DNA of 32,000 bases, taken from contig NZ_LN831039.1 in assembly GCF_001457595.1 (NCBI RefSeq), positions 3,090,001-3,122,000 on the forward strand, written 5' to 3'. Both the position numbers and the translations under genes were made by a program. The stretch comes from Mycolicibacterium smegmatis (GTDB lineage: Bacteria > Actinomycetota > Actinomycetes > Mycobacteriales > Mycobacteriaceae). The stretch's first letter is position 1. Each line of letters starts with the position of its first letter. The notes beneath the pieces were generated by a model that worked only from the letters and a program-made list of their open reading frames with translations, ran no database searches and was not told the origin of the DNA. Shown here piece by piece: positions 16,254 to 30,102 of this stretch.

Positions 16254-16315
16254 AAGCAAACAGCCGGACCCGACGCCGCGGCCGCGATCCGCGATGCGAA
16301 GCAAGCCAGTAGGGC

Positions 16316-17008
16316 TCAGATCGCCATGGCGGCGCGGACATCGGCTTCGGAGGCCGAGCCGCCGGTGCCGCTCGATGTGATGCGCCCGGCCTCGAGGATG
16401 TAGTAGCGCTGGGCGGATTCGAGCGCGAACCCGATGTGCTGCTCGACGAGCAGGACGCCGAGGTCGCCGCGTGAGGTGAGTGCGGTGATGGCGGCCTCGA
16501 TCTCGGCGACGACCGACGGCTGGATGCCCTCGGTGGGCTCGTCGAGGATCAGCGTCTTGGGGCTCGTGATGAGCGCACGCGCGATGGCCAACTGCTGGCG
16601 CTGGCCACCCGAGAGCAGGCCGGCGCGCCGGTTGAGTAGCTCCTTGAGCGCCGGGAACAGGTCGAGCTGTTCGGCGATCAGCGCCTTGCCGTTCTTGCGG
16701 CCGTCGGCCACCACCTGCAGGTTCTCGGCCGTGGTGAGCTGGCCGAACGACTGCTGCCCCTGCGGCACGTACGCCAGTCCGCGGGCCACGCGGGCACTCG
16801 GCCGCAGCTTGGTGATGTCCTCACCGTCGAAAAGCACCTTGCCCGAAGTGCATTTGAGCAGACCGACGGCCGCGCGCAGCAGCGTGGTCTTGCCCGCACC
16901 GTTGTGGCCCATCACCGCGGCGACCCCGTCCGAGGGCACCTCGATGCCGGCACCGTGGATCACCTCGGAGCGGCCGTAGCCGGTGTGGACGTCGACGAGT
17001 TCGAGCAT
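16316..17008 (-). CDS. urtE: Urea ABC transporter ATP-binding subunit UrtE
   Basis: 230-aa ABC ATPase with Walker A GHNGAGKT and signature LSGGQRQ. It has the UrtE-typical EPTEGIQPS. It is the last gene of the urt operon, and its start shares 1 nt with the urtD stop. Confidence 0.9.
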   Translation of the reverse strand: MLELVDVHTGYGRSEVIHGAGIEVPSDGVAAVMGHNGAGKTTLLRAAVGLLKCTSGKVLFDGEDITKLRPSARVARGLAYVPQGQQSFGQLTTAENLQVVADGRKNGKALIAEQLDLFPALKELLNRRAGLLSGGQRQQLAIARALITSPKTLILDEPTEGIQPSVVAEIEAAITALTSRGDLGVLLVEQHIGFALESAQRYYILEAGRITSSGTGGSASEADVRAAMAI

Positions 17009-17820
17009 CAGGCGATCCCTTCCGCACCGGCCGCGGCCGTGCCCAGATAGACCTCTTGCACCTTCGGATTGGCCTGCACCTCGGCGACCGTGCCCTCGGC
17101 GATCACCTGACCGCGGGCCAGCACGGTCACCGACGTGGCGAATGCGCGCATGAAGTCCATGTCGTGTTCGACGACGACGACGGTGCGGGCACCGCCGATG
17201 CGCCGCAGCAGATTTCCGGTCTCCTCACGCTCCTCGTGGCTCATCCCGGCGACGGGTTCGTCGAGCAGGAGCACGTCGGCGTTCTGCACCAGCAGCATGC
17301 CGATCTCCAGCCACTGTTTCTGACCGTGCGCGAGCACGCCCGCGGGCTTGTCGGCCAGATCGGCCAGGCCCGTGGTCTCCAGCGCCTCCTCGATGGACGG
17401 CAGCACCCCGCGGCGGCGCCGCAGCAGCGACCACGGTGAGCGGCCCGCACCCGCGGCGATGTCGAGATTCTGCAGCACCGTGAGTTGTTCGAAGACGCTT
17501 GCGGTCTGGAAGGTACGGCCGACGCCGAGGCGGGCGATCTGGTGCACCTTCTTGCCGAGCAGTTCCGCGCCGGACTTGTTGACCGACCCGGTGGCAGGCA
17601 CCAGACCGGTGATGGCGTCGATCACGGTGGTCTTGCCTGCGCCGTTGGGGCCGATCAGGAAGCGCAGATCGCCCTGGAACAGCGTGAGGTCGACGCCGTT
17701 GACGGCCTTGAAGCCGTCGAAATCCACGGTGAGGCCACGTACTTCGAGGTATTCGGCCCCCATGCCTGCGTTGCCGCCCGCGACGGGTTCCTTCTCGGCG
17801 GTGGGTTCGGTATCGGTCAT
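17008..17820 (-). CDS. urtD: Urea ABC transporter ATP-binding subunit UrtD
   Basis: In-frame part of track ORF 17008..18915. The ATG at 17820 (MTDTEPTAEK...) overlaps the urtC stop (ATGA). It has Walker A GPNGAGKTT and the UrtD-typical HGQKQWLEIGMLL. Confidence 0.9.
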   Translation of the reverse strand: MTDTEPTAEKEPVAGGNAGMGAEYLEVRGLTVDFDGFKAVNGVDLTLFQGDLRFLIGPNGAGKTTVIDAITGLVPATGSVNKSGAELLGKKVHQIARLGVGRTFQTASVFEQLTVLQNLDIAAGAGRSPWSLLRRRRGVLPSIEEALETTGLADLADKPAGVLAHGQKQWLEIGMLLVQNADVLLLDEPVAGMSHEEREETGNLLRRIGGARTVVVVEHDMDFMRAFATSVTVLARGQVIAEGTVAEVQANPKVQEVYLGTAAAGAEGIA

Positions 17821-18944
17821 GACGCGGCACCTACCTTCTCGGCGTCGGGATCGCTGTCGGTGGTGGGCTCGGCGTCGGGTCCCGGCGGCGTCGGATCGGG
17901 CTTGTTGCGTCGCCAACGACGCAGCGCCACACCGAGACCCGCGAGTCCGGCCGGGAAGAAGCCGACGACGACGATGAACAGCAGGCCCTGCGCATAGGTC
18001 CACTCCGACGGGAAGCGTTCGGAGAACAGGGTTTGCGCCCACGCCACGCCGATGGCTCCCAGCACGGGGCCCAGCAGTGTGGTGCGCCCACCGATGGCCA
18101 CGCCGATCAGGAACGCGATCGACGGGATGATGCCCACCTGCGACGGTGCGATGAACCCGACGATCGGCGTGAACAGCGCACCGGCGATGCTCGCGAACAA
18201 CGCTGCCAGCGTGTACGCGACCACCTTGATGTTGGCGGGGTCGTAGCCGAGGAAGCGCACGCGCTCCTCGCCGTCGCGCACCGCGACCAGCAGCTCGCCG
18301 TACCGGCTGTACATGAGTTGGCGGACGACGGCGACGACGATCAGAAGCGTTGCGGCGGCGATGAAGTACAGCATCCGCTTGTTCACCGGATCGTTGAGCG
18401 TGAACCCGAAGAACGTGCGGAAGTTGTTCAACCCGTTGCTGCCACCCAGGCTGGTCTGCCCGACGAGCAGGATCGCCAAAGCGGCCGCGAGCGCCTGCGA
18501 CAGGATCGCGAAATAGGCGCCCTTGACCCGTCGTTTGAACACGCCGAGACCCAGAAGTGCGGCGATACCGGCCGGGATGACCAGGATGGCCAACAGGGTG
18601 AAGACGGGGGAGGCGAACGGCGTCCAGTAGCCGGGCAATTCGCGCACGCCGGCGATCTGCATGAAGTCCGGCACCGCCTGGTGGCGGATCTCGGCGTCGG
18701 CGATCTTGAGGTGCATGCCCATCATGTAGCCGCCGAGGCCGAAGAACACGCCCTGGCCCAGAACCAGCATTCCGCCTCGGCCCCAGGCCAATCCGATACC
18801 CACCGCGACGATCGCAAAGCACAGGAACTTGCCCAGCAGGCTGAGCCGGAAGTCCGACAACACGGCCGGGGCCACGCCGAACAACAGCACCGCCGCGACC
18901 GCGAAGCCGGCCCACGTCTGCCAGCGACCGAGCATGGTTCTCAT
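17817..18944 (-). CDS. urtC: Urea ABC transporter permease UrtC
   Basis: In-frame part of track ORF 17817..19367. The ATG at 18944 (MRTMLGRWQTWAG...) overlaps the urtB stop (ATGA). It is a LivM-like polytopic permease. Confidence 0.9.
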   Translation of the reverse strand: MRTMLGRWQTWAGFAVAAVLLFGVAPAVLSDFRLSLLGKFLCFAIVAVGIGLAWGRGGMLVLGQGVFFGLGGYMMGMHLKIADAEIRHQAVPDFMQIAGVRELPGYWTPFASPVFTLLAILVIPAGIAALLGLGVFKRRVKGAYFAILSQALAAALAILLVGQTSLGGSNGLNNFRTFFGFTLNDPVNKRMLYFIAAATLLIVVAVVRQLMYSRYGELLVAVRDGEERVRFLGYDPANIKVVAYTLAALFASIAGALFTPIVGFIAPSQVGIIPSIAFLIGVAIGGRTTLLGPVLGAIGVAWAQTLFSERFPSEWTYAQGLLFIVVVGFFPAGLAGLGVALRRWRRNKPDPTPPGPDAEPTTDSDPDAEKVGAAS

Positions 18945-19825
18945 ACCAGACTCCTTGTCCGCACGGTGAACAGGCCCTGCGGGCGCACCTGCAGGAAGAT
19001 CACGATGATCACGAACACGATCACCTTGGCCAGCGACGCCGTGGTGTTGTACTCGATGAAGGAGTTCAAAAAGCCCAGCGTCAGCGCCGCGATGACGGTG
19101 CCCTTGATCTGGCCGAGCCCGCCCACCACGACCACCAGGAACGCGTCGATGAGGAAGCTCTGGCCGATGGTCGGGCTGGTCGAACCGATGAGTGTCAGCG
19201 CGACACCGGCGACAGCCGCGAGCCCGGATCCGATGAAGAACGTCGTGATGTCGGTCTTGCGGGACGAGATGCCGCTGGTCTCTGCGAGATCGCGGTTCTG
19301 CACCACCGCCCGGATACGACGGCCCATGGGGCTCGCCTTGAGCACGGTCGCGAGCACCGCGACACACACGACGGCCAGGACCAGGATGAAGATGCGGGTC
19401 TTGGGCACGACGGCGCCGAGGATCTCGACGCCGCCCGACAGCCAGGAGGGGGCCACGACGTTGACCGCGGGGGCACCGAAGATGTCGCGCGCGATCTGCT
19501 GAAGGATCAGCCCGACGCCGAAGGTGACGAGCAGGGTGTCCAGCGGGCGGTGGTACATGCGCTGGATCAGCGTCACCTCAAGCAGGGCACCCATCGCGCC
19601 ACCGACGAGGAATCCCACCACCAGCGAGATGAGCAGGGACGCACCGGCACTCGAGATCACCTGCTGGACCACGTACGCGGTGTAACAGCCGGCCATGATG
19701 AACTCGCCGTGCGCCATGTTGATGACGCCCATCTGGCCGAACGTCAGAGAAAGGCCGAGTGCGGCCAGCAACAGGATCGAGCCGAGGCTCAATCCTGTTG
19801 CCAGCTGGCCGATCAGGATATCCAT
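18941..19825 (-). CDS. urtB: Urea ABC transporter permease UrtB
   Basis: 294-aa LivH-like permease (MDILIGQLATGLSLGSILLLAALGLSLTFGQMGVINMAHGEF...). Confidence 0.9.
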   Translation of the reverse strand: MDILIGQLATGLSLGSILLLAALGLSLTFGQMGVINMAHGEFIMAGCYTAYVVQQVISSAGASLLISLVVGFLVGGAMGALLEVTLIQRMYHRPLDTLLVTFGVGLILQQIARDIFGAPAVNVVAPSWLSGGVEILGAVVPKTRIFILVLAVVCVAVLATVLKASPMGRRIRAVVQNRDLAETSGISSRKTDITTFFIGSGLAAVAGVALTLIGSTSPTIGQSFLIDAFLVVVVGGLGQIKGTVIAALTLGFLNSFIEYNTTASLAKVIVFVIIVIFLQVRPQGLFTVRTRSLV

Positions 19826-19860
19826 ACGGTTGTCAGATCCCCCTCGGTGTGACTATCTGA

Positions 19861-21129
19861 TCAGCTCGACAGCCCTGCGGCCCACGGGTAGGACTTCAGG
19901 TACGGATCCGGCTCGATGGGGCCCTTGGACTCCCACACCGTGTAGATCAGGCCGTCGGGGCGGATCTCACCGATGCGGGCGGTCTTGGTGATGTGGTGGT
20001 TCTCGCCGTCGATGGTGACCTTGCCCTCGGGCGCGTCGAAGCTCACGCCATCGGCGTTGTCCTGAATTGCCTTGACGTCGAAGGACTGTGCCTTCTCCAC
20101 GGTGTTCTTCCACAGGTACACCGAAACGTAGGCCGCCTCCATCGGATCCGACGTCGGCTTCTTGGGGTCCTTCACGAAGTCCTTGTAGGCCTTGACGAAG
20201 GCCTTGTTCTCCGGGGTGTCGATGGTCTCGTAGTAGTTCCACGCGGTGAGCTGCCCGTCGATGTTCTGGACACCGATACCGCCGACCTCTTCCTCGGCGA
20301 TCGACACCGAGACCACCGGCATGGTGTCCGGCGTCAGGCCGACGTTGCGGTACTCGCGGAAGAATGCGACGTTGGAATCACCGTTGAGGGTGTTGAACAC
20401 GGCGTCGGCGTTCGCGCTGCGGACCTTGTTGACGATGGTCGAGAAGTCCGTGGAGCCCAGTGGCGTGTAGTCCTCGCCCTTGATCTCGATGCCGTTGGCC
20501 TCGGCGTACGCCTTGATGATGCGGTTGGCGGTCTGCGGGAAGACGTAGTCGCTGCCCACCAGGTAGAGCGACTTGACGCCCTTCTCCTTGAGGTAGTCCA
20601 GCGCGGGCACGATCTGCTGGTTGGTGGTGGCGCCGGTGTAGAAGATGTTGGGCGACGATTCCAGGCCCTCATACTGAACGGGGTAGTACAGCAGGGCGTT
20701 GGCGCTCTCGAAGACCGGCAGCATGGCCTTGCGGCTCGACGAGGTCCATCCGCCGAACACCGCCGCGACGCAGTCGCTGCTGATCAGCTTCTCGGCCTTC
20801 TCTGCGAACACGGTGGGCTCCGACGCGCCGTCCTCGCCGATCAGTTCGATCTGCTTGCCCAGCACACCGCCGTCGGCGTTGATCTCCTCGACCGCGAGCT
20901 TGATGGCGTCGCGGACGGTGACCTCGGAGATCGCCATGGTGCCCGACAGCGAGTTCAGCGAGCCCACCTTGATGGTGGGGCCGGACGTGTCAACACATGA
21001 TTCGGCATTTGCTGCGTCGGTTTCGCTCGCCTTGCTCCCGCACCCGGCCAACAACAGGCCGGCAACGGTGATAACGCTTCCGGTGGCCAACGCCGAACGC
21101 CGGATCGTGGCACGTCCTCGAACTCGCAT
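19861..21129 (-). CDS. urtA: Urea ABC transporter substrate-binding lipoprotein UrtA
   Basis: In-frame part of track ORF 19861..21201. The ATG at 21129 has GGAAAGG 7 nt upstream. The signal peptide carries a lipobox (LLLAGC). The sequence [17 protein letters not shown] is UrtA-typical. Confidence 0.9.
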
Positions 21130-21239
21130 GAACAACCTTTCCCGATGATTGCAGCGCATTTTGGGCCGATCGCCTCGGCCGCGGTGCAGGAGGTTAAACA
21201 CACTGTGCTGGTGTCGAATCGGGACGTTAGAGCGCGCGT

Positions 21240-21277
21240 GTTACTGCCAAATGTCTGTGTGTGACGAACAAATTAAC
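21240..21277. promoter_or_regulatory. Candidate GlnR-type nitrogen-regulator site upstream of urtA (tentative)
   Basis: The sequence reads GTTAC-n6-ATGTC-n5-GTGAC-n6-ATTAAC. The roughly 11-nt periodic GTnAC-like elements resemble the actinobacterial gTnAc-n6-GaAAc box as I recall it. The b-sites are poor and one spacer is 1 nt short. Confidence 0.3.
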
Positions 21278-21366
21278 CTCGACATGACATGCCGCTGGTT
21301 TGCCGCCGGTTCTCGACGCCGTGACACCGGCGTGGCGTGTGTAACGGGGAGGTAGCCTGCGTCGAT

Positions 21367-21798
21367 ATGACGAACATGCGAAACGTGACGAAGAGGGTCG
21401 GCGCCGCGGTGTTGGCGGCGTCGGCGTCCATTGCGGTGGTGGGACAGGCGACAGCGCATGCGGAGCCCGAGGGCCACCAGGTCCGTTACACATTGACGTC
21501 TGGCGCGCCTTACGAGTTCGACCTCTACTATCTGGCGACGCAGCCCGCGGACAAGGCGGCCTACGACGCCGATCCGTACGCCTACCTGCAGAAGGCCGAG
21601 GTGAACGTCGCTCCGGACGCGCCATGGGTCTTCGAGACCACACTGGCCGATCCGCAGTGGGCGATCTTCACGGTGTCCAGCACGACGCACGGCGGACGGG
21701 GCGCGCCGAACGCGCACTGTGAGATCGCCGTCGACGGCGAGATCGCGACGCAGAACGACCACCCGTACAGCCCGCGGTGCCAGCTGGGCAACTGGTGA
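21367..21798 (+). CDS. Small secreted protein with an MmpS-like domain (hypothetical)
   Basis: Part of track ORF 21337..21798, using the ATG at 21367 or 21376. It has a Sec signal ...AVVGQATAHA/EPEG. The mature domain pattern VRYTLTSG...YY...APDAPWVFETTL...IFTVSS...HCEIAVDGEIATQ...PRCQ resembles the MmpS soluble domain with its two Cys. Confidence 0.6.
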   Translation: MTNMRNVTKRVGAAVLAASASIAVVGQATAHAEPEGHQVRYTLTSGAPYEFDLYYLATQPADKAAYDADPYAYLQKAEVNVAPDAPWVFETTLADPQWAIFTVSSTTHGGRGAPNAHCEIAVDGEIATQNDHPYSPRCQLGNW

Positions 21799-21829
21799 CC
21801 TGAGGATTCTCAACATCTGAGAGCTGCTT

Positions 21830-21865
21830 GACACCCCTATCGAACTGTTGTTCGATAGGGGTGTC
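21830..21865. terminator. Perfect 16-bp-stem / 4-nt-loop palindrome between convergent genes; candidate bidirectional terminator that also contains a perfect SOS box
   Basis: gacacccctatcgaac-tgtt-gttcgataggggtgtc has no mismatch. The core at 21840-21855 is TCGAACtgttGTTCGA. It lies 32 nt after the MmpS-like stop and 112 nt after the alpha/beta hydrolase stop. Confidence 0.6.
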
Positions 21866-21976
21866 TGCGTTTGATCGGTTCCGCTTCCGCTCCGACGCCG
21901 GCTTGACTGGGCACGCGCCCTCGGCGCGCGCCGGTGCCGTACCCGAAACCGCGGCACCGGCGCACCCAGTCCCTGC

Positions 21977-22792
21977 CTAGGTCCCTTCGGCGTGCCGGAC
22001 GGCCCTCGAGATGGCGTCAGCCAGGTCGGCGGGCGCTTCGACATGGGCCAGATGGCCCTGCCCGGGGAGTCGGGCCAACCGTGCCTGCGGCAGCGCCGCG
22101 GAGAACGGGACGAACGCCGTCCCGTACGGCGCCGCACCCTCGTTGAGTGCGCCGAGGATGAGGGTGACCGGAACCGTCAGGTGACGGTAGTCGTCGAAGG
22201 ACGGCTCGAATGCGTCGATCGCGGCGAGTTCCTCGCCCATCGGCTGCGCGAGCGGCCTCAGTACCTCCCATGCGGGGCTGCGGCGGAGGCCGGCCACATA
22301 GTCGTCGGAGAAACCGGATACATCGGTGTTGACGAGAGCGACCGCTCGGTCGAGGTCACCCGCGGCGACTGCGGCGCGGATGGGTGCGACGGTCTCGGGT
22401 GCGAAGGGGCGACTGACGGGTTCGTACGCCGTGACCGACCGGATCCGGCCGGAACCGAGCGCGGCCTCCAGTCCGATGAGCGCACCGTAACTCCAGCCGA
22501 CGAGGTGCACGGCCCCGAGCGCGCCGACGACGCGTCGCAGGTCGTCGACCTCGACGGCGACCGAGTAGTCCGCGCCCAACCCACCGCTCGACGCGCGACC
22601 GCGGCGGTTGAGGGTGACGACGGGGTTCGGCAGGTCGATGTGCGCCACCACGGGCCGCCAGGTCGCGGCGTCGGCCATGATGCCGGGCACGATCACCACC
22701 GGTGTGCCGTGGCCCGGTCGCACCTCGGCGCTCAATCGCGTGTCGGCGGTTTCCAGGCTGAGGTGAAGTGGCTCTGCGTGCGTGAGAATCAC
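21977..22792 (-). CDS. Alpha/beta-fold hydrolase
   Basis: 271-aa ORF with the nucleophile elbow GWSYG. Its GTG start overlaps the TGA of the upstream hydratase gene (GTGA at 22789-22792). Confidence 0.8.
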
Positions 22793-24426
22793 TGCGGTGC
22801 TGCTCCGATCGTGAGTAGTGGTGGACGGCGGTAGAAGTCGTTGCCCTTGTCGTCGATGACGATGAAGGCGGGGAAGTTCCGCACCCGCACCCGCAGCACG
22901 GCCTCCATGCCGAGTTCGCCGTATTCGAGGGTCTCGACCGAGGTGATGAAGTCACGGGCGAGCCGGGCCGCGGGCCCGCCGATGGAACCGAGGTAGAAGC
23001 CGCCGTGAGCCTGGCACGAACGCCGCACCGCATCCGAGCGGTTGCCTTTCGCGAGCATCACCAGTGATCCGCCTGCGGACTGGAACCGCTCGACGTAGGA
23101 GTCCATGCGTCCGGCCGTGGTGGGACCCAGCGAGCCCGATACGTGGCCGGACGGTGTCTTGGCGGGCCCGGCGTAGAAGACCGGGTACCGGCGCAGGTAA
23201 TCCGGTAGCGGTTCGCCCGCGTCGAGTCGCTCACGGATCTTGGCGTGTGCCAGGTCGCGTGCCACGACGAGGGTGCCTGTCAGCGACACCCTGGTGCCGA
23301 CGGGGTGGGCCGACAGTTGGGCCAGGGTGTGCGCCATCGACACGTCCAGGTCGATCCGGATGTCCTCATCGCGGCGGCCGGCATCGGCGTCATCGGGCAG
23401 GAACCGTGCCGGATCGGTTTCGAGTTGTTCGAGGAACACCCCGTCCCGCGTGATCCGGCCCAGGATGTGACGGTCGGCGGCGCACGACACCGCGATGGCC
23501 ACAGGCAGCGACCCGGCGTGGCGGGGCAGGCGGATCACCCGCACGTCGTGGCAGAAGTACTTACCGCCGAACTGCGCCCCGATCCCGAGCTGCTGTGTGG
23601 CCGTGAGGATTATGTGTTCGAAGTCCAGGTCGCGGAACCCGTGGCCAGTTCCCGATCCGGCGACGGGCAGCGCATCGAGGTGGTGGGCAGAGGCCAGTTT
23701 GGCGGTCTTGAGCGCGAATTCGGCGCTCGTGCCGCCGATCACGACCGCCAGGTGGTAGGGCGGGCATGCCGACGTGCCGATCTCGGCGGCCTTGGCCACG
23801 ACGAAGTCGAGCAGCGCATCGGGCGTCAGGAGGGCGGGTGTCTCCTGGAACAGGAAGCTCTTGTTGGCGCTGCCACAGCCTTTCGCGATGAACAGGAACC
23901 GGTAGTCGTCCTCGCCCTCGGCGAGGATCTCGATCTGCGCGGGCAGGTTGGTGCCGGTGTTGCGCTCGTCGAACATGGACACGGGCGCGACTTGCGAATA
24001 GCGCAGGTTCAGGGTTCGGTACGCGCGGGCGATGCCGAGCGACAGGTGCTCGGCATCGCGGCCGTCGGTGAGGACGTGCCGTCCGCGCCAGGCGTGCACG
24101 ATCGCGGTGCCGGTGTCCTGGCACATCGGGAACACGCCACCGGACGCCACATTCGCGTTGCGTAGGAGTTCGGTGGCGACGTAGCGGTCGTTGGGCGAGG
24201 CCTCCGGATCCTCGAGGATCGCCGCAACCTGGCGAAGGTGGCTGCTACGCAACAGATGTGACACGTCGCGGTATGCCTCGAACGCCAACTGCTCGACGGC
24301 CGCGGGGTCGACGTCGAGGAACTCCCGGCCCGCACCGTGTACCGTGCGGGCCCCGGCGATGTCGAGCCGGCGGTAGTCGGTGGTGTCGGCGCCGAGCGGC
24401 AGTATCGGTGTGTAGTCGACGGTCAT
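22789..24426 (-). CDS. Class-I (Fe-S) fumarate hydratase-type hydro-lyase, fused alpha+beta domains
   Basis: In-frame part of track ORF 22789..24561. The ATG at 24426 ([12 protein letters not shown]...) overlaps the amidase stop (ATGA). Motifs present: [15 protein letters not shown] and the C-terminal beta-domain [25 protein letters not shown]. At 545 aa it is similar in size to FumA-type enzymes. Confidence 0.85.
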
Positions 24427-25766
24427 CGGTGTTCGATCCGTGCGGCCAGATCGAACAGCATGCCCTCGTTGCCGGGCGCGCTGATCAGTTGCAACCCGAC
24501 GGGCAGACCCGAGACGACGCCTGCGGGCACGCTGAGCGCGGGATGCCCGGTGAGGTTCCACGGGCAGGTCAGCGACAGCAGTGCCGATCGCACCTCGACG
24601 GCGTGGCCGTCGATCTGGTGGGCGCGCTGGTCGATCTCGGTCGCGACCGTCGGCGCAGCGGGCATCGCGAGTACGTCGAACCGCGTGAGCAGGGTGTCGG
24701 CTGCCGCGCGCAACCTGTCACGTTGGCGGCAGGCACGCACGTATTGCCATGCGGGCGTGTCCCTTCCGCGCAGCAGGCGTCCGAGCACCTCGGGGTCGAT
24801 GTCGGATGCACGCTGCTCGGTCTCGGCGCTGTACTCGGTATAGGCCTCGCTGGACTGCAGGACGCTGAGCGCCTCGAACACCTCGCCCGCCGCGAACGGC
24901 AGTCCGACGGTGCCGTCGACCGTGATCTGCGCGGCGCGCAGCGTCTCGGACAACGCCGCGATGATTGCCGGGTCACACGGGCCGAGGCATGCGGGATCCA
25001 GCCAGGCGACCCGTTGCGCGCGAACCGGATCGGGGGACCGGCCGGCCATGGCCGTGTACGCCGCCGCTGCGCCGGTCGCGGTGCGGGCGAACACCCCGAC
25101 GTGATCCAGCGATGCCGCAAGGGGCCAGACGCCCCGCGCCGGGATCGCGCCGTAGGCCGGCTTGAACCCGACCACACCGCACAACGCGGCGGGTACGCGG
25201 ACCGAGCCTGCGGTGTCGGTGCCGACAGCCAGGGGAACCATGCCCGCGGCGGTCGCCACTGCACTGCCGCCGCTCGATCCGCCGCTGATCCTGCTGGGAT
25301 CCCAAGGGTTTCGTGATGCGCCGTGTGCCGATCGGTCACCGGTCGCGCCGAAGGCGAATTCGTGCAGGACATTCCTGCCGACGATCACCGCGCCCGCGGT
25401 GCGCAACCGGCGCACGCATTCGGCGTCGGCGGTCGCCGGACCGGGGTGGACCACCGAACCCCGCGTCGTGACGTGTCCGGCGACGTCGACGAGGTCCTTG
25501 ACCGCGACCGGGATGCCGTGCAGCACACCGCGGTCATGGCCACGTGCGAGTTCGGCATCGGCGTGCCGCGCGGCGTCGAGCGCGCCTTCTGCGTCCACGG
25601 CCGTGAAGGCGTTGAGGGTCGGATCGAGCCGTGTGATGGCGGCGAGGCTGTGCTCGACGAGTTCGACACTCGTGGTGTGGCCATTGCGAAGATCCGCTGC
25701 GAGGGAATGGATGTCGTGGTCGCGGAAGAATCCGGTCAACCCGGTGGTATCGGCTGTTTCGGTCAT
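24423..25766 (-). CDS. Amidase-signature family amidase
   Basis: In-frame part of track ORF 24423..26807. The ATG at 25766 ([10 protein letters not shown]...) overlaps the upstream stop (ATGA). It has the AS motif [14 protein letters not shown] and a Ser-cisSer-Lys context ([20 protein letters not shown]). Confidence 0.9.
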
Positions 25767-26896
25767 GATGTCGTGATTCCTGGGAGCAGTTGAAGGGATG
25801 GGACGATTACGGCGGTGGCGACGGCCATGGCGGCAACGTTGCCGATGAACGGATGGAAGTCGCCGGGCAGTAGTGCCGAGATCCGGTCGGCGAGTGGTGG
25901 ACCCAACAGTGCCCCGAGCAGTGCACCGGCGAGCACCGACGCCGCGGTTCCGCCGTACGTCAGCACGCAGGCCGGCGCGACCGACACCACGGGCACGAAC
26001 GTCGGGTAGAACGGGCGGCGTGCCCAGCGGGTCCGCCACACCGACACGGCCACCACGGCGGTGAGCACCTGTGCGGCGAGAATCTGTGGGAGCAGCCCTG
26101 ATCCATAGGCCACCGAGGCGGGTGCCATCGCGTAGGCGATCAGGGCGCCCGCGACGAGTCCGAGGCTCGCCCACTCGCTTCCGAAGAACGGCGCCTCGGA
26201 GAAGTCGGCGACGCAACGCCGCAGCACCCACACCGGTCCGGTCCTGACCGCAGGAGCCGGCGGTGATGCCGGGCCCCGGGGGAGCGCCGGCGCGGGCACC
26301 CACGGGAGATGTCGGCAGATCATGAACGCGATCACCGCCGCGATCGCCATCCCGCCTGTGACCCCGACGACCGACGGCACACCGAGTCGCGGGCACAGGA
26401 CGCTCGCACCGAGCACCGAGAGTGGCGGGGTCACCACGCCGCCGAGCACGCCACCGGTGAGTACGGTTTTGATATCGGCACCGAACATCAGCACGATGGT
26501 CGGTGACACCGAGACGAACGGCGCGAACAGCGGTTGCCAGATCCCTGCCGACAGGGTCCATCCCCACAGCAGGTTGCTGACTGCGACGCCCAGCATGGCG
26601 CTGGCCAGCATCGGCACCCACATGCCGGATCCGCACGCCTGCGCGAACCCCTGCAGGCGGTGCCCGCGTCTGTGCAGCCAGTGCGCCAGTGCACCGCCGG
26701 CGATCAGACCGAGACCGGACAGGGCGTTCGAGTAGAACGTGGGTTCGCTTGCCGCCGAGGCGATCTGCGCGAGCATCGGCGTGACGGCATGCAGGCTGCC
26801 ACTCCACAGCAGTGCGGCGAACAGGCAGATCGCGGCGACCAGGGGCAGCAGCGGGAGCGCGGCGTCGGGTGGACGCGTGGACGGAGCGGTCGTCAT
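25763..26896 (-). CDS. Polytopic integral membrane protein of unrecognised family (putative transporter)
   Basis: 377-aa ORF with about 10 hydrophobic spans in two halves, separated by a Pro/Arg-rich loop (LPWVPAPALPRGPASPPAPAVRTGP). I recognise no MFS, APC or ABC motif. The ATG at 26896 lies 9 nt after the nitrilase stop. Confidence 0.6.
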   Translation of the reverse strand: MTTAPSTRPPDAALPLLPLVAAICLFAALLWSGSLHAVTPMLAQIASAASEPTFYSNALSGLGLIAGGALAHWLHRRGHRLQGFAQACGSGMWVPMLASAMLGVAVSNLLWGWTLSAGIWQPLFAPFVSVSPTIVLMFGADIKTVLTGGVLGGVVTPPLSVLGASVLCPRLGVPSVVGVTGGMAIAAVIAFMICRHLPWVPAPALPRGPASPPAPAVRTGPVWVLRRCVADFSEAPFFGSEWASLGLVAGALIAYAMAPASVAYGSGLLPQILAAQVLTAVVAVSVWRTRWARRPFYPTFVPVVSVAPACVLTYGGTAASVLAGALLGALLGPPLADRISALLPGDFHPFIGNVAAMAVATAVIVPSLQLLPGITTS

Positions 26897-26905
26897 GACG
26901 CGTGC

Positions 26906-27805
26906 CTACCTGGGGAGGGCCTGGCCGCCGCGGTACCCGAGGAGCTGGTCGTAGAGATCGGTGCGCCGGTCGCGGTGCAGATCGTTGAACTGGTTCCAGA
27001 TGGGCGCACCACGCGAGGCCGTGATGTCGATGTCGGCGTAGAGGATGGTGTCCTCATCCGGGCCGGCGATGCGGTCGATGGGCCAGCCGTTGGTGCCCGC
27101 GATGAGCGAGTTGCCCATGAACCCCGAGGTGCGTTCGGTTCCGATGCGGTCGGCCGTGGCGATGAAGACGTTGTTGACGTGGGCGGCCGTCATCGTCAGG
27201 TATGCGGCCATGCACGTGCCGCTGTCGTCGTACAGCGGTGGCGGGGTCCACACCCATCCCGTCGGGATGCAGATGATGTCGGCGCCCTGCTGGGCGACGA
27301 TGCGCGCGGTCTCGGGGAACCAGATGTCCCAGCAGACCAGCAGACCGATGCGGCCGATGCGGGTGTGGAACACCGGGTAACCCAGGTCGCCGGGGGAGAA
27401 GAACAGCTTCTCCTCGTTCCACAGGTGCGTCTTGCGGTACTTGCCGATATACCCCTCCGAGCCGACGAGGACCGCGGTGTCGAACAGTTCGACGCCGTCG
27501 AGCTCGGGCAGACAGCCGACGATGTACACGTCGTGGGCCGCCGCGAACTCGGCCCAGCCGGTGACGGTCGCGCCCGAGGGCACGGGCTCGGCGTGCGCAT
27601 AGGCCTCCTCGCGGGATTCGAACGTGTACCCCGTCGTCGCGAGCTCGGGCAGCACGATGAGGTTGGCGCCCCCGGCTACCGCTTGCTGAAGACGTTCGTA
27701 GACCGCTTCGGAGTTGGCCTTCAGGTTCTCGACCCCGACCTGCGGGTTGAACTGCACGACGGCCACGCGGGCGGGGCTGAACCGATGTGAGTCTTGATCA
27801 GGCAT
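26906..27805 (-). CDS. Carbon-nitrogen hydrolase (nitrilase superfamily)
   Basis: In-frame part of track ORF 26906..28123. The ATG at 27805 (MPDQDSHRFSPARVAVVQFNP...) has AAAGGA 6 nt upstream. The Glu-Lys-Cys triad contexts are present: LPELATTGY, YRKTHLW, LLVCWDIWFPE. Confidence 0.88.
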   Translation of the reverse strand: MPDQDSHRFSPARVAVVQFNPQVGVENLKANSEAVYERLQQAVAGGANLIVLPELATTGYTFESREEAYAHAEPVPSGATVTGWAEFAAAHDVYIVGCLPELDGVELFDTAVLVGSEGYIGKYRKTHLWNEEKLFFSPGDLGYPVFHTRIGRIGLLVCWDIWFPETARIVAQQGADIICIPTGWVWTPPPLYDDSGTCMAAYLTMTAAHVNNVFIATADRIGTERTSGFMGNSLIAGTNGWPIDRIAGPDEDTILYADIDITASRGAPIWNQFNDLHRDRRTDLYDQLLGYRGGQALPR

Positions 27806-27870
27806 AACGGATCCTTTTCGGCTTGGGATGGATTTGTGAGCGGTGATGGAACACGCCCGGCCCTGGTTGC

Positions 27871-27896
27871 CCGAACGTTCGGGCCGAACGTTCGGG
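27871..27896. promoter_or_regulatory. Exact tandem duplication of CCGAACGTTCGGG, each copy carrying the perfect 12-bp palindrome CCGAACGTTCGG; candidate LacI-family operator pair
   Basis: Read directly: 27871-27883 equals 27884-27896. The repeats sit in the 178-bp divergent region between the nitrilase operon start (27805) and the LacI gene start (27984). The central ACGT/CG core is typical of LacI/PurR-type operators. Confidence 0.55.
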
Positions 27897-27983
27897 TTAT
27901 ACTGCTCCGTGGTGTGCATCACTGTCAAGGGGTGCCCGGCCGGGTGTTCCCCAGCAAACTGAGAACCAACTGAAAGGCCGTGG

Positions 27984-29018
27984 GTGGGAAAGTCGAAGCA
28001 GCCGACACTCCAGTCGATCGCCGACGATCTCGGCCTGCACGTCTCGACCGTCGCGCGCGTGCTCAACGGTATGCGCGAGGGCGAGCGTGCGGCCTCGGGT
28101 GCCACGGCCGAGCGAATCCGCAAACGTGCGGCCGAGGTGAACTACCGGCCCAATCCGCATGCCGCGAGCCTGCGGACCCGGCGCACCAACCTGGTGGGCG
28201 TTCTCGTGCCGAGGCTCACCGACGTGGTGCTGGCCACGGTGTACGAGGGCATCGAATCGGCTGCCGCGGACCGGGGCCTGACGGCGTTCGTCGCCAACAC
28301 CCAGGACGAGACCGACCGTCAGCGCAAGCGGATCGACATGATGCTGGACCGGCGGGTGGACGGGTTGATCCTCGGCGACGCGCGTTCCGACGACCACACC
28401 GTGCTCGAGGAACTGACCCGCCGCGAGGTGCCGTTCGTGTTGGTCAACCGCAGCGTCGCCGACTATCCGGCGGCCACGTGTGACAACTACCTCGGCGGTC
28501 GGCTGGCCGCCGAACACCTTCTGGCGCTTGGCCATCGCCGCGTCGGCGTCATCGCCGGGCTCGCGCATGCGAGCACCGGCATCGACCGGCCCGCGGGTTT
28601 CGTGGACCGCTTCCGCGAGGCCGGCATCGAGGTGCCCGACGAGCTCATCGTGTACTCGGGTCTGGACAGTCAGGGGGGCCATTACGCGGCCGACCGGATG
28701 CTCGACGGCGACGCACCGCCGACCGCGATGTTCGCCGTCAACGACTTCGCCGCGATCGGTGCGGCCGGTGCGATCCGCAACCGCGGTCTGCGGGTGGGGC
28801 GGGACGTCTCCCTGATCGGGTTCAACAACATCGCCCTGACCGCCGAGATGCACGTCCCCCTGACCTCGATCGAATCGCGCGCCTTCGACATGGGCCGCGA
28901 CGCCCTGGAGTTGCTCGCCGACACGCTCGCAGGTGCGGCGCCCGCGCAGCGGCGCACGAAACCTGTTCTGGTGGTGCGAGAATCGACGTGCGACGCACAC
29001 GGCTCGGCCCTGACCTGA
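27984..29018 (+). CDS. LacI-family transcriptional regulator
   Basis: 344-aa ORF with a GTG start 6 nt after GAAAGG. It has an N-terminal HTH (TLQSIADDLGLHVSTVARVLNG) and a periplasmic-binding-protein-like effector domain. Confidence 0.9.
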   Translation: MGKSKQPTLQSIADDLGLHVSTVARVLNGMREGERAASGATAERIRKRAAEVNYRPNPHAASLRTRRTNLVGVLVPRLTDVVLATVYEGIESAAADRGLTAFVANTQDETDRQRKRIDMMLDRRVDGLILGDARSDDHTVLEELTRREVPFVLVNRSVADYPAATCDNYLGGRLAAEHLLALGHRRVGVIAGLAHASTGIDRPAGFVDRFREAGIEVPDELIVYSGLDSQGGHYAADRMLDGDAPPTAMFAVNDFAAIGAAGAIRNRGLRVGRDVSLIGFNNIALTAEMHVPLTSIESRAFDMGRDALELLADTLAGAAPAQRRTKPVLVVRESTCDAHGSALT

Positions 29019-29059
29019 TCGACCGCGCCGAGCGTGCGCGCGCCTCCTTGACAACGCGG

Positions 29060-29075
29060 TCGAACGCATGTTCGA
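29060..29075. promoter_or_regulatory. Perfect mycobacterial LexA SOS box TCGAAC-gcat-GTTCGA
   Basis: Read directly from the sequence. It lies 6 nt downstream of a perfect TTGACA (29048-29053) and covers the first ATG (29068) of the radical SAM ORF. Confidence 0.7.
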
Positions 29076-30102
29076 TGGTGGTGTGCGTTGGGATGAGCAG
29101 GCCGTGCGGGTCGATGACGGGGCGTTGCCCGGTCTGGCCCGTGTCGGCTTCGTCCGCAGCGTGCGGGCCCCGGAATTCGAGGGGATCACGTTCCACGAGG
29201 TGCTGTGCAAGTCGGCACTGAACAAGGTGCCCGCTGCGTCGGCGCTGCCGTTCCGGTTCACGGTCAACGGCTACCGCGGGTGCACGCATGCCTGCCGGTA
29301 CTGCTTCGCCCGGCCGACGCACGAATATCTCGACTTCGATCCGGGCGTGGATTTCGACCGCCAGATCGTCGTCAAGACCAACGTCGTGGAGGTCCTGCGC
29401 CGCGAGTTGCGGCGTCCCTCGTGGACGCACGAGACCGTCGCGCTCGGCACCAACACCGACCCGTACCAGCGCGCCGAGGGCCGCTATGCCCTCATGCCCG
29501 GAATCATCGGGGCACTGGCGGATTCGTACACGCCGTTCTCGGTCCTGACCAAGGGCACGCTGCTGCGGCGAGACCTGGGACTGATCGCTGAGGCGGCCCG
29601 TCGCGTCGAGGTCAGCGTCGCGGTGTCGCTGGCGATCGGCGACGCAGACCTGCACCGCGACATCGAGCCCGGTACGCCGTCACCGCAGGCCCGGTTGGCG
29701 CTGATCTCCGCGATCCGCGACGCCGGCCTGTCGTGCCACGTGATGGTGGCGCCGGTGCTCCCGTACCTGACCGATTCGGCCGAGCACCTCGACGATCTCC
29801 TGGGCCGCATCGCGGAAGCGGGCGCCACGAGTGTCACGGCGTTCGGGCTGCATCTGCGGGGGAGCACCCGCGGATGGTTCATGTCGTGGCTGGCGTCGTC
29901 GCATCCGGAGCTGGTCTGGAAGTACCGCCAGCTCTACCGCAAAGGCGCGTATCTACCTGCCGAGTACCGGCACATGTTGCACGACCGCGTGCAGCCGCTG
30001 ATCGTCAAGCACGGGCTGGCCGGTCAGCCGCGGATGCCCGCGCCGGAGACGCCGACGCCGCAGGTCGCACGGCCCGAGCCGGTGCAGGCCGCGCTGTTCT
30101 GA
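29068..30102 (+). CDS. Radical SAM protein, Rv2578c / SplB-like ('DNA repair photolyase' COG) family
   Basis: 344-aa ORF with the CxxxCxxC cluster motif GCTHACRYC. It is the conserved neighbour of the hisS region in mycobacteria (recollection). The start is uncertain: GTG 29083 (giving MRWDEQAV...) is a strong alternative because the ATG at 29068 lies inside the SOS box. Confidence 0.85.
   Translation: MFDGGVRWDEQAVRVDDGALPGLARVGFVRSVRAPEFEGITFHEVLCKSALNKVPAASALPFRFTVNGYRGCTHACRYCFARPTHEYLDFDPGVDFDRQIVVKTNVVEVLRRELRRPSWTHETVALGTNTDPYQRAEGRYALMPGIIGALADSYTPFSVLTKGTLLRRDLGLIAEAARRVEVSVAVSLAIGDADLHRDIEPGTPSPQARLALISAIRDAGLSCHVMVAPVLPYLTDSAEHLDDLLGRIAEAGATSVTAFGLHLRGSTRGWFMSWLASSHPELVWKYRQLYRKGAYLPAEYRHMLHDRVQPLIVKHGLAGQPRMPAPETPTPQVARPEPVQAALF

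Follow-up and report, generated by a model that had tools for sequence, protein, structure and literature searches.

The genes MSMEG_2984-2988 of Mycolicibacterium smegmatis form, at about even odds (a probability of roughly 0.5), a catabolic operon induced by its substrate and centred on a module of a nitrilase-superfamily C-N hydrolase and a putative channel with a urea-transporter (UT) fold, a two-gene core that recurs in hundreds of soil bacteria. The operon and its regulator gene (together MSMEG_2984-2989) lie in the window, that is, the 32,000-nucleotide stretch of M. smegmatis DNA that was analysed. Locus tags were checked against published deletion primers and TSS tables, identifying MSMEG_2985 as the fumarase (backed by the deletion primers) and MSMEG_2989 as the LacI-family regulator. 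On the minus strand, the genes are ordered as follows:

26906..27805, minus strand: nitrilase-superfamily C-N hydrolase MSMEG_2988, 299 aa (Pfam CN_hydrolase, 160 bits)
25763..26896, minus strand: integral membrane protein MSMEG_2987, 377 aa, UT fold (AF2 model, Foldseek)
24423..25766, minus strand: amidase-signature (AS) amidohydrolase MSMEG_2986, 447 aa (Pfam Amidase, 318 bits)
22789..24426, minus strand: fused class I [4Fe-4S] fumarate hydratase FH1, MSMEG_2985, 545 aa (Fumerase, 252 bits; Fumerase_C, 253 bits)
21977..22792, minus strand: alpha/beta-fold serine hydrolase MSMEG_2984, 271 aa, the last gene of the operon (Abhydrolase_6, 57 bits; Abhydrolase_1)

A check of open reading frames and junctions bore out the original prediction of these five genes and their arrangement: the TAG stop codon of the C-N hydrolase gene is followed by 9 nt and the ATG of the membrane-protein gene, and the remaining junctions are the overlaps ATGA (25763-25766), ATGA (24423-24426) and GTGA (22789-22792). 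Profile-HMM classification of the operon proteins recovered each of the families named beforehand, except for the 377-aa protein, and all four enzymes retain their catalytic residues. The operon was also rightly described as uncharacterised: its proteins reached none of the NCBIfam equivalog cut-offs, the literature search returned only the fumarase by name, and no characterised homologue was found.

MSMEG_2988, preceded by an AAAGGA Shine-Dalgarno sequence 8 nt ahead of its ATG, has Glu54, Lys125, Glu132 and Cys158 all in place. Its nearest solved structures are the P. abyssi nitrilase (3ivz) and the P. horikoshii amidase (1j31/6ypa/7ovg), both at about 180 bits. Its closest characterised relatives are these small archaeal enzymes: a structure of one was obtained with glutaramide and acetamide, and the other is reported to be a nitrilase acting on short aliphatic dinitriles. 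Among the NCBIfam equivalogs, none was reached (nitrile_Arch, 198 versus 500 bits; AguB, 159 versus 410 bits). Orthologues with 62-94% identity are found across phyla in 81 loci with the channel gene adjacent, and relatives with 77-84% identity occur in Variovorax, Aquabacter and Polaromonas; on these comparisons, the C-N hydrolase is the invariant catalytic core of the module.

Neither MSMEG_2987 nor 10 distant relatives matched any Pfam or NCBIfam model, and a PDB sequence search with MSMEG_2987 returned no match. When its AF2 model (pLDDT 77, pTM 0.81) was searched against the PDB with Foldseek, the top five matches were all urea transporters (TM 0.54-0.63, probability 0.99-1.0); the other matches mostly fell below TM 0.3, the best being Rh ammonium-channel proteins (0.31-0.37). 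A second, independent model of the Pseudomonas homologue (pLDDT 82, pTM 0.84) matched only UT-A and zebrafish UT. Moreover, MSMEG_2987 is internally duplicated (half versus half in hhalign, P 99.7%, E 3e-26). The likeness to urea transporters is at the level of the fold only (TM 0.46-0.63, 12-15% identity, with neither a sequence nor a Pfam link). A highly conserved charged motif of this protein family, RRxxADFSEAxFFGxEWAS, has no recognised UT equivalent. The models point to a new, previously unrecognised family with a UT fold, in which MSMEG_2987 may act as a channel that passes a small, uncharged solute of the amide type, although the protein could instead be a sensor or an enzyme.

The membrane protein is encoded directly downstream of the C-N hydrolase in 81 of the 85 loci (Actinobacteria and Pseudomonas), and its relatives are encoded in 429 species genomes. 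All five genes plus LacI are present in 10 of 11 Mycolicibacterium-type loci, the eleventh being without a detectable alpha/beta hydrolase, and Rhodococcus jostii and Nocardia beijingensis share four of the genes together with LacI, showing that the gene order is not specific to one strain. The five-gene composition as a conserved unit, in turn, did not hold up: the core is hydrolase plus channel, and the parts that vary across loci are amidase or asparaginase, fumarase or tautomerase, and LacI, HxlR or AraC. Variovorax and Aquabacter have the hydrolase without the channel, which is hence not obligatory.

MSMEG_2986 carries the motifs of the Lys90, Ser164 and Ser188 triad, scores best against the NCBIfam AtzE family (345 bits, under the 461-bit cut-off) and is structurally nearest to AtzE (6c62) and a T. 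thermophilus protein (2dc0). Its orthologues (50-74% identity) follow the channel gene in actinobacterial loci, and an asparaginase-family gene fills this position in Pseudomonas. That a second amidohydrolase is almost always present, drawn from two unrelated families, speaks for a second deamidation step being needed, on a small amide acid resembling Asn or succinamate. Together with the UT fold, this strengthens the predicted import and stepwise deamidation, with the substrate itself still inferred.

Three further features account for the proposed regulation:

27984..29018, plus strand: LacI-family repressor gene MSMEG_2989, divergent from the operon (Pfam, published TSS table)
27870..27896, no strand assigned: predicted tandem operator, two 12-bp perfect palindromes CCGAACGTTCGG with centres 13 bp apart
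27899..27928, minus strand: promoter-like element of the operon (-35 TTGACA at 27928-27923, 18-nt spacer, -10-like CAGTAT at 27904-27899), abutting the operators

Both the divergent LacI gene and the duplicated perfect palindrome between it and the operon are present as originally predicted. The start coordinate of MSMEG_2989 matches the published TSS table. Peripla_BP_3, Peripla_BP_1 and Peripla_BP_4 were clear in this protein, the LacI HTH reached 26.7 bits against a 27-bit cut-off, and the best NCBIfam models (RbsR, PurR, CytR and UriR) all stayed far under their cut-offs. Orthologues (55-89% identity) stand divergent to the hydrolase operon in the 15 type-A loci as well as in four Streptosporangiales, Actinoallomurus and Prauserella loci. 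In the window, CCGAACGTTCGG occurs exactly twice (27871-27882 and 27884-27895), the full block 27870-27896 reading CCCGAACGTTCGGGCCGAACGTTCGGG, and relaxed matches elsewhere are at chance level. Two copies of CGAACGTTCG with identical spacing lie in the LacI-hydrolase intergenic region of 15/15 LacI-plus-fumarase loci from three genera, and a variant, CCCAAACGTTTGG, is found in 2-3 copies at the same position in more distant LacI-type loci; judged from sequence, the operator co-varies with the LacI clade, including in a second order. A central CG and a AANCGNTT core are typical features of LacI-family operators. The spacing between TTGACA and the first operator is fixed at 26-27 nt in M. smegmatis, M. 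brisbanense, R. jostii, N. beijingensis, Actinomadura, Actinoallomurus, Prauserella and a Streptosporangiaceae MAG. An E. coli-style promoter scan gave no match, and the candidate promoter at 27899..27928 derives from this phylogenetic footprint. With the operator abutting a conserved TTGACA-type promoter, the view of the operon as a single, translationally coupled and LacI-linked unit is supported.

In the reading we prefer, LacI (MSMEG_2989) would bind the tandem operators, which would overlap the transcription start, and keep the operon off until an effector appears. A small uncharged amide-type solute, most likely a short-chain diamide, cyano-amide or dinitrile, would diffuse in through the channel; the C-N hydrolase would cut its first C-N group and the AS enzyme the second, trapping the compound as an acid and releasing ammonia. 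Where the operon includes the class I fumarase, as in Mycobacteriales, that enzyme would take the resulting C4 acid (either fumarate or mesaconate itself, or fumarate derived from succinate) towards malate or oxaloacetate, and the alpha/beta hydrolase may take off an additional acyl or ester substituent or handle a related substrate. The amiE/amiS and UT-urease clusters are analogues of such channel entry and stepwise deamidation. The usual ligands of LacI-family regulators are sugars or nucleosides, not amides, which counts against an amide substrate.

Other versions of the locus raise the rather unlikely alternative that the module serves detoxification instead of nutrition, destroying a reactive, thiol-alkylating small amide or nitrile. 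Candidates would be diamides or dinitriles with an alpha,beta-unsaturated or acetylenic backbone, for example fumaramide, fumaronitrile and cellocidin (acetylenedicarboxamide), an antibiotic of Streptomyces. The class I fumarase or a tautomerase-superfamily protein would then hydrate or tautomerise the unsaturated acid formed. In about 32 actinobacterial loci, as well as in Variovorax and Aquabacter, the hydrolase gene is divergent from that of an HxlR/DUF24-type regulator with an invariant N-terminal Cys-Pro motif, and known members of this family are sensors of electrophiles and aldehydes. A 130-aa Pro-1 tautomerase-family protein sits at the fumarase position in these HxlR-type loci; for both class I fumarases and tautomerase-superfamily enzymes, hydration of acetylenic acids and tautomerisation of enol acids have been reported, a chemistry that the proteins encoded here may share. 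The operon's lack of nitrogen regulation would also fit. However, the M. smegmatis version is under LacI rather than HxlR, such compounds may not reach relevant levels in soil, and the amino-acid oxidase and asparaginase of the Pseudomonas version point to catabolism. The oxidase-like flavoenzyme added in this version, which resembles Trp-2-monooxygenase and L-amino-acid oxidase, counts against our preferred reading too, except if it generates the amide from an amino acid.

FH1 aligns with the Leishmania major fumarate hydratase over residues 29-534 (647 bits, E 2e-193) and conserves CQDTG, CPPYH, SCxADR, GPTTAGR and KGNRS, with Cys102, Cys221 and Cys315 in place. A published deletion strain, delta-fh1, is viable, and acidification of vesicles driven by fumarate needs FH2, indicating that FH1 is dispensable for housekeeping fumarase activity. 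The fumarase is found in 16 of the 85 loci, all from one Mycobacteriales LacI-type lineage, and lies about 90-160 nt away from the amidase gene in R. jostii and Nocardia; it may therefore say little about the substrate. This weakens the originally proposed C4-dicarboxylate substrate, a plausible link that may reflect just one evolutionary association, in one lineage. MSMEG_2984, with a GWSYG nucleophile elbow (Ser101) and His247, resembles the NCBIfam models PcaD and RutD only weakly and generically. Its gene family is present in 12/85 loci, following the fumarase in 10 Mycolicibacterium loci and the channel directly in Actinomadura and Actinoallomurus. These sparse distributions, the intergenic gap and the closeness of FH1 to bona fide fumarate hydratases would suit a mosaic operon, in which hydrolase, channel and amidase alone share a substrate and the other two, the fumarase as an oxygen-sensitive isoenzyme of the TCA cycle and the alpha/beta hydrolase as an unrelated passenger, are co-transcribed by chance in Mycobacteriales. 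We consider this unlikely, as in M. smegmatis start-stop overlaps (ATGA and GTGA) couple the two genes to the amidase gene, the arrangement is retained in 10 Mycolicibacterium species and, as far as the fumarase is concerned, in three genera, and the alpha/beta hydrolase orthologue joined the channel independently, in another gene order, in Actinomadura and Actinoallomurus.

The neighbouring operon, urtABCDE, encodes a urea ABC transporter (UrtA, 589 bits versus a 493-bit cut-off). This adjacency is real but weakened as evidence: the synteny is confined to Mycolicibacterium and comes without co-regulation, with urt up about 5-fold in published nitrogen-limitation data and MSMEG_2984-2989 missing from the same lists. 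The latter pattern fits induction by a specific substrate. Degradation of ureides or N-carbamoyl compounds, with the C-N hydrolase as an N-carbamoyl amidase, the AtzE/allophanate-hydrolase-like amidase acting on a carboxylated or acylated urea and the channel importing or venting urea or a close analogue, would account for this neighbour, for the hydrolase's second-best family (N-carbamoylputrescine amidase, 159 bits), for D-carbamoylases and beta-ureidopropionases among its PDB matches, for the amidase being nearest to AtzE and allophanate hydrolase models, and for a membrane protein whose sole structural relatives carry urea. It is nevertheless improbable: equivalog cut-offs were all missed by a wide margin, the cluster is without urease, allophanate or biuret genes, the urt neighbour is shared within one genus only, the operon, unlike urea-scavenging genes, is not induced by nitrogen limitation, and such a pathway does not account for the fumarase, tautomerase, asparaginase and amino-acid oxidase as partners.

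Even less probable is a role in asparagine metabolism, with the hydrolase as a beta-cyanoalanine nitrilase/hydratase or as an omega-amidase for 2-oxosuccinamate (omega-amidases and NIT4 are nitrilase-superfamily enzymes), the amidase or asparaginase turning an Asn-type by-product into aspartate, and the fumarase acting after aspartase or as an oxaloacetate tautomerase: the asparaginase-family gene of Pseudomonas (which scores 203 bits with the type II asparaginase model, under its cut-off) and the L-amino-acid-oxidase/2-monooxygenase-like gene beside the hydrolase and the fumarase's connection to C4 acids speak for it, but the match of the hydrolase to omega-amidase/Nit1-type models (41-60 bits) and to true nitrilases is poor, the substrates in question are charged and would suit a UT-type channel badly, and aspartase or transaminase occurs in no cluster variant examined.

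Downstream of MSMEG_2984, a hairpin was found:

21831..21864, no strand assigned: likely bidirectional terminator, a perfect 15-bp stem with a 4-nt loop

Folding gave a dG of -32.1 kcal/mol (z -9.8 versus shuffles). Located 113 nt past the MSMEG_2984 stop codon and 33 nt past a convergent 153-aa open reading frame, it likely closes the operon in both directions.

The original prediction had proposed a translationally coupled five-gene operon divergent from a LacI gene. We found its five minus-strand open reading frames and their junctions in place, and Pfam and NCBIfam upheld its domain calls of a C-N hydrolase, an amidase-signature enzyme, a fused class I fumarate hydratase, an alpha/beta hydrolase and a divergent LacI-family regulator; the membrane protein it called unknown indeed lacks a family in both databases. 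Published deletion primers for "FH1, MSMEG_2985" bridge the amidase-fumarase junction, and the MSMEG_2989 start in the published transcription start site (TSS) table is the LacI start codon, identifying the genes as MSMEG_2984-2989. The membrane protein shares 99% identity with a hypothetical protein of M. smegmatis. Scanning the operon revealed no internal terminator-like or promoter-like signals better than chance.

Features of the operon region
27984-29018, plus strand: MSMEG_2989, LacI-family regulator
27928-27923, minus strand: -35 hexamer TTGACA of the predicted operon promoter, followed by an 18-nt spacer
27904-27899, minus strand: -10-like hexamer CAGTAT of the predicted operon promoter
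27884-27895 and 27871-27882: tandem palindromes CCGAACGTTCGG, exactly two copies in the window
Minus strand: MSMEG_2988, C-N hydrolase; junction to the next gene TAG-9 nt-ATG
Minus strand: MSMEG_2987, 377-aa membrane protein and putative channel; junction ATGA, 25763-25766
Minus strand: MSMEG_2986, amidase; junction ATGA, 24423-24426
Minus strand: MSMEG_2985, class I fumarase FH1; junction GTGA, 22789-22792
Minus strand: MSMEG_2984, alpha/beta hydrolase
21831-21864: perfect 15-bp hairpin at the end of the operon (dG -32 kcal/mol, z -9.8)
21337-21798, plus strand: MSMEG_2983 (orf153), 153 aa, convergent on the operon

Comparing 85 loci by tblastn with the window proteins showed the C-N hydrolase gene directly upstream of the putative channel gene in 81 cases, the exceptions being two Actinoplanes loci, one metagenome-assembled genome (MAG) and one truncated contig. 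Identity over these loci was 62-94% for the hydrolase and 45-77% for the channel protein, and the accessory genes fell into four variants.

Gene order in the four variants of the module
Variant A, 15-16 loci, Mycobacteriales: LacI divergent from hydrolase-channel-amidase-signature (AS) amidase-class I fumarase
Variant B, about 32 loci (Kribbella, Amycolatopsis, Nonomuraea, Streptomyces, others): HxlR divergent from hydrolase-channel-AS amidase-130-aa protein
Variant C, about 27 Pseudomonas loci: AraC(GATase1-like)-flavin amine oxidase-hydrolase-channel-asparaginase-family protein
Variant D, Actinomadura, Actinoallomurus, Prauserella: LacI divergent from amidase-hydrolase-channel, with or without alpha/beta hydrolase

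Nearly all loci have also recruited a second amidohydrolase, and the final enzyme differs from lineage to lineage. The 130-aa protein of variant B starts with Met-Pro and is labelled as tautomerase family by several sources, with PF01361 detected in some members; a search of the window for a tautomerase homologue found none. Ten Mycolicibacterium loci of variant A add the alpha/beta hydrolase, so the proposed five-gene unit does recur beyond the strain, but what is conserved is the hydrolase, usually with the channel, while the other genes vary by lineage. The hydrolase also occurs without the channel in Variovorax (HxlR divergent from hydrolase-tautomerase) and Aquabacter (HxlR divergent from the hydrolase alone), where it remains 79-84% identical to MSMEG_2988, indicating that the hydrolase is the core and the channel its usual companion.

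Individual loci depart from these types. At the Nocardia beijingensis locus (record L016, 4425-5543), HxlR and a 130-aa tautomerase form a divergent pair directly upstream of a LacI-type hydrolase-channel-amidase-fumarase operon, placing both accessory solutions side by side in one genome. Actinoplanes auranticolor (record L086, 8001-10228) carries a channel gene without C-N hydrolase or amidase, preceded by response regulators and followed by a different alpha/beta hydrolase, which indicates that the channel can pair with other hydrolase types.

Catalytic residues are intact in all four operon enzymes. MSMEG_2988 matches PF00795 (CN_hydrolase) over residues 13-262 at 159.6 bits (cut-off 23.2), which places it in the nitrilase superfamily, and its catalytic set of Glu54 (PELAT), Lys125 (YRKTH), Glu132 and Cys158 (LVCWD) aligns with archaeal enzymes. 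Its scores lie far below the NCBIfam equivalog cut-offs for nitrile_Arch (198 versus 500 bits), AguB (159 versus 410), aliphatic amidase (59 versus 427), formamidase (57 versus 406) and deaminated-glutathione amidase (60 versus 355). The best relatives with structures are the Pyrococcus abyssi nitrilase 3IVZ and P. horikoshii PH0642 (1J31/6YPA/7OVG), which score 178-187 bits and share the Glu-Lys-Glu-Cys set, followed by N-carbamoylputrescine amidase and D-carbamoylases. Short aliphatic amides, diamides and dinitriles have been used in work on the archaeal enzymes. Compared with them, MSMEG_2988 is about 37 residues longer and its group forms a tight bacterial clade of its own with a fixed genomic partner. 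PH0642 has been crystallised with glutaramide and acetamide.

MSMEG_2986 belongs to the amidase-signature family (PF01425, 318 bits), with a Ser-cisSer-Lys triad of Lys90, Ser164 (GGSSGGSA) and Ser188 (TDTAGSVR) and the canonical Ser-Ser spacing of 24 residues. It is nearest to AtzE and a Thermus amidase, the best curated-family and PDB matches being AtzE/allophanate-hydrolase amidases of s-triazine and urea-carboxylate catabolism (345 bits; 6C62, 220 bits). Both AtzE (1-carboxybiuret hydrolase) cut-offs were missed, however (345 versus 461 and 340 versus 426), neither an AtzG-like small subunit nor cyanuric-acid pathway neighbours occur in the window or the related loci, no biuret genes lie nearby, and, unlike AtzE, the orthologues belong to the channel-hydrolase module. 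FH1 matches both PF05681 and PF05683, as expected of a class I fumarate hydratase, and scores 647 bits against the structurally characterised Leishmania enzyme, with CQDTG, CPPYH, SCxADR, GPTTAGR and KGNRS conserved and the [4Fe-4S] cluster ligands Cys102, Cys221 and Cys315 present; it falls short of the enterobacterial FumA equivalogs (696 versus 1,094), as an enzyme of a distant lineage should. Deletion of fh1 leaves a viable strain, and the vesicle-associated fumarase activity stems from FH2, which would leave FH1, the literature name of MSMEG_2985, free for a specialised role. MSMEG_2984 has the alpha/beta-hydrolase fold (PF12697, 57 bits; PF00561, 44 bits), with a nucleophile elbow G99-W-S101-Y-G103 and His247, and lies below every specific subfamily (PcaD, 39 versus 256; RutD, 30 versus 239). 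Filing the three hydrolases and the fumarase under AguB, archaeal nitrilase, AtzE, allophanate hydrolase, IaaH, PcaD, RutD or FumA was thus rejected, as the NCBIfam equivalog cut-offs were not reached.

The membrane protein matched no NCBIfam model, and Pfam scans returned no family for three members (E <= 1; the window protein at the default threshold) or for 10 distant relatives (E <= 1), the urea transporter (UT) family PF03253 included. A profile search of PDB sequences at E <= 10 came back empty, and the JGI label "ENTS family enterobactin exporter" was discarded, as no model backs it. An AlphaFold (AF2) model of MSMEG_2987 built from 16 homologues (pLDDT 77, pTM 0.81) gave bovine UT-B, Desulfovibrio UT (dvUT, twice), zebrafish UT and human UT-A2 as its top five Foldseek matches in the PDB, with TM scores of 0.54-0.63 and probabilities of about 1; other matches mostly scored below 0.3, Rh ammonium-channel proteins alone reaching 0.31-0.37. 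An independent AF2 model of a Pseudomonas homologue from 40 sequences (pLDDT 82, pTM 0.84) had human UT-A and zebrafish UT as its only credible matches, so that across both models UT-B, dvUT, UT-A and zebrafish UT were the sole matches at a probability of about 1 (TM 0.46-0.63). The two halves of MSMEG_2987 are homologous (hhalign P 99.7%, E 3e-26, 27% identity), matching the two-repeat build of UT channels, whose roughly 10 transmembrane helices fall into two inverted, homologous halves. Fold and repeats are thus shared with UT/SLC14 proteins (PF03253, including urease-linked bacterial UTs), but the family has no detectable UT sequence similarity, pairs with a nitrilase-superfamily enzyme rather than urease and carries its own invariant motifs (WGWT, WQPxF, RRxxADFSEAxFFGxEWAS, YPTFVPVVSVAPA and HPFIGNV). 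It is small and tight, with 226 representative clusters at E <= 1e-3 among 1.84 billion and relatives encoded by 429 species-level genomes. We conclude from the models that MSMEG_2987 represents a new family with a predicted UT fold, and a channel function is its probable role.

In amidase operons with AmiS/UreI, a dedicated channel admits small uncharged amides by facilitated diffusion, and hydrolysis then traps them. The aliphatic amidase operons of Pseudomonas aeruginosa (amiEBCRS) and M. smegmatis (acetamidase operon with amiS) resemble the present operon in placing a cytosolic amidohydrolase gene beside a putative channel gene under a specific regulator, and P. aeruginosa AmiE is likewise a nitrilase-superfamily enzyme. 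In UT-urease clusters, too, a channel gene is paired with an enzyme hydrolysing the transported amide, as is proposed here. There are also differences: AmiS/UreI channels have six helices, whereas MSMEG_2987 has about 10-12, internally duplicated and modelled in a UT fold; MSMEG_2988 lies in another branch than aliphatic amidase; the module's loci add another amidohydrolase as well as either a fumarase or a tautomerase; and AmiC/AmiR are replaced by LacI, HxlR or AraC regulators. The best-supported model is by analogy with the AmiS/UreI amidase operons and urease-linked UT genes: a small uncharged solute would enter through the channel by facilitated diffusion and would then be trapped via hydrolysis.

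As to the substrate, the original prediction had suggested stepwise deamidation of a nitrile, amide or diamide of a C4 dicarboxylate. Stepwise deamidation is favoured by the near-constant second amidohydrolase: that this position is filled by enzymes of two unrelated families suggests that a small amide acid has to be deamidated a second time. The substrate would then carry two C-N groups open to hydrolysis, as in a diamide, cyano-amide or dinitrile. The C4 link, in turn, carries limited weight. In Mycobacteriales, the presence of the fumarase suggests C4 products (fumarate or mesaconate formed directly, or succinate passed on to fumarate), but its association may have arisen once. After the fumarase gene, the Rhodococcus jostii record L003 (14476-15081) has a short, apparently truncated HpcH/HpaI-family reading frame of 201 aa with weak likeness to the citramalyl-CoA lyase RipC of itaconate degradation (62 bits versus a 375-bit cut-off), which hints that the class I enzyme there might act as a mesaconase.

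The Pseudomonas variant offers a further parallel. Its flavoenzyme, closest to tryptophan 2-monooxygenase and L-amino-acid oxidase/monooxygenase, precedes the module as in davBA/iaaMH pairs of amino-acid 2-monooxygenase and amidase, and DavA is a nitrilase-superfamily amidase. This order fits a pattern in which the oxidase makes an amide that the C-N hydrolase cleaves. Such an oxidase is, however, absent from the M. smegmatis operon and all actinobacterial variants, and neither davBA nor iaaMH has an equivalent of the channel, the second amidohydrolase or the fumarase. A periplasmic oxidase feeding the channel was rejected, as neither a Tat nor a Sec signal was seen at its N-terminus.

The main alternative to nutrient trapping by channel and hydrolase is detoxification of an electrophilic unsaturated amide or nitrile, for which the HxlR regulators and the tautomerase of variant B speak; members of the HxlR family sense electrophiles. 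Ureide degradation, an asparagine/beta-cyanoalanine branch and a mosaic operon are all held with lower confidence. The nicotinate/maleamate pathway (NicD/NicF/NicE), considered for the alpha/beta hydrolase and amidase, was dismissed because no variant contains a dioxygenase, an isochorismatase-type amidase or a maleate isomerase. There is also a more specific reading that we think unlikely: MSMEG_2987 would be a new UT-superfamily branch that conducts, in place of urea, the diamide or dinitrile of a short-chain dicarboxylic acid (for example succinamide, malonamide, fumaramide or an analogue with an acetylenic bond), the module would be the long-unassigned genetic basis of diamide use, and the class I fumarase or tautomerase would finish or detoxify an unsaturated C4 product. 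We know of no genes assigned to the succinamidase and malonamidase activities of rapidly growing mycobacteria, so the operon is a candidate, albeit a speculative one, for their source. Both activities belong to the classical ten-amide panel of mycobacterial taxonomy.

The searchable literature yielded no characterisation of the module or a homologue, the fumarase alone being named there. Pairing a channel with an amidohydrolase under the control of a specific repressor is already known; what is new is the family of the channel, the clade of the hydrolase and their combination with a fumarase or tautomerase, and no established concept is overturned. If the channel assignment holds, the family is an unrecognised bacterial UT-fold family absent from Pfam, whose fixed enzymatic partner would show that amide channels are paired with cytosolic amidohydrolases in more than the UreI/AmiS and UT-urease systems. 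Soil Actinobacteria and rhizosphere Pseudomonas commonly carry the module, which probably marks a nitrogen-containing metabolite or toxin whose turnover current pathway maps omit. For mycobacteria, it offers a role that can be tested for FH1, the dispensable Fe-S fumarase, candidates for the genes behind classical amidase phenotypes and a possible genetic tool in the form of a LacI promoter-operator pair predicted to be tightly repressed.

The duplicated perfect palindrome of the original prediction is real, and the tandem CCGAACGTTCGG pair is kept between the LacI and hydrolase genes at all 15 loci with LacI and fumarase (11 Mycolicibacterium-type, three Rhodococcus jostii records and Nocardia beijingensis). 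Remoter LacI-type loci (Actinomadura, Actinoallomurus, Prauserella and a Streptosporangiaceae MAG), whose repressors are 55-60% identical, instead have two or three copies of CCCAAACGTTTGG; the operator thus changes with the repressor clade, indicating that the two co-vary. MSMEG_2989 itself matches Peripla_BP_3 (112 bits) and Peripla_BP_1 (101 bits), with a helix-turn-helix match at 26.7 bits, slightly below the 27-bit cut-off; together with conserved palindromic predicted operators with a central CG, this domain pair is that of a LacI/GalR-family regulator. TTGACA stands 26-27 nt upstream of the first operator in every LacI-type case compared. An E. coli-type promoter scan returned nothing, and the promoter proposal is built on cross-species conservation instead; with the promoter so placed, the operators would overlap the transcription start. 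No primary TSS for the operon appears in the accessible part of the TSS supplement. Within the channel gene, a ratio-ranked supplementary list (Martini et al. 2019), whose columns suggest antisense TSSs with at least 10-fold downstream coverage, places antisense TSSs at genome positions 3053551+ and 3053582+ (window about 26473 and 26504, plus strand; ratios 18.4 and 15.8). A TANNNT-type -10 (TACGGT, 26461-26466) lies ahead of the first; these TSSs could dampen the repressed operon or be noise.

The neighbouring urea-uptake operon urtABCDE was confirmed (UrtA, 589 bits versus a 493-bit cut-off), but its adjacency proved to be genus-level synteny without co-regulation. The urt genes rise about 5-fold in nitrogen-limited chemostats, and MSMEG_2984-2989 are missing from the same differential-expression lists and from the GlnR regulon supplements, where urt genes are present; control by nitrogen limitation or co-regulation with urea uptake was therefore rejected. 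The urt, orf153 and radical-SAM flanks are syntenic within Mycolicibacterium only, and the surroundings of the operon in Rhodococcus and Nocardia are unrelated. Taken with the absence from the nitrogen-limitation lists, this restricted synteny argues against a functional linkage to urt.

In the stretch 14520-30102, the core genes hisS (14520-15800) and an Rv2578c-family radical SAM gene (29068-30102; 517 bits versus a 430-bit cut-off) flank urt, orf153, the five operon genes and LacI. If these two core genes are close neighbours in M. tuberculosis, the stretch behaves as a variable island. MSMEG_2983 matches no family, has a hydrophobic, signal-like stretch at its N-terminus, and is kept beside the operon in Mycolicibacterium at 54-76% identity. 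Two plus-strand TSSs lie in it or just past it, one close to its 5' end (genome 3048454) and the other after its stop codon (genome 3048941), both assigned in the TSS table to the distant MSMEG_2989. No riboswitch or other RNA and no tRNA was found in the window. A separate uncharacterised cluster occupies 5307-11758.

Genes of the cluster at 5307-11758
Minus strand: flavin reductase
Plus strand: DUF1989/urea-amidolyase-associated-like protein
Plus strand: Old Yellow Enzyme-type flavin oxidoreductase
Plus strand: polysaccharide-deacetylase/PuuE-like protein
Minus strand: PucR-type regulator
Plus strand: NCS1 nucleobase-type permease with an N-terminal extension of about 200 aa

This set looks like a catabolic one for an N-heterocycle or ureide.
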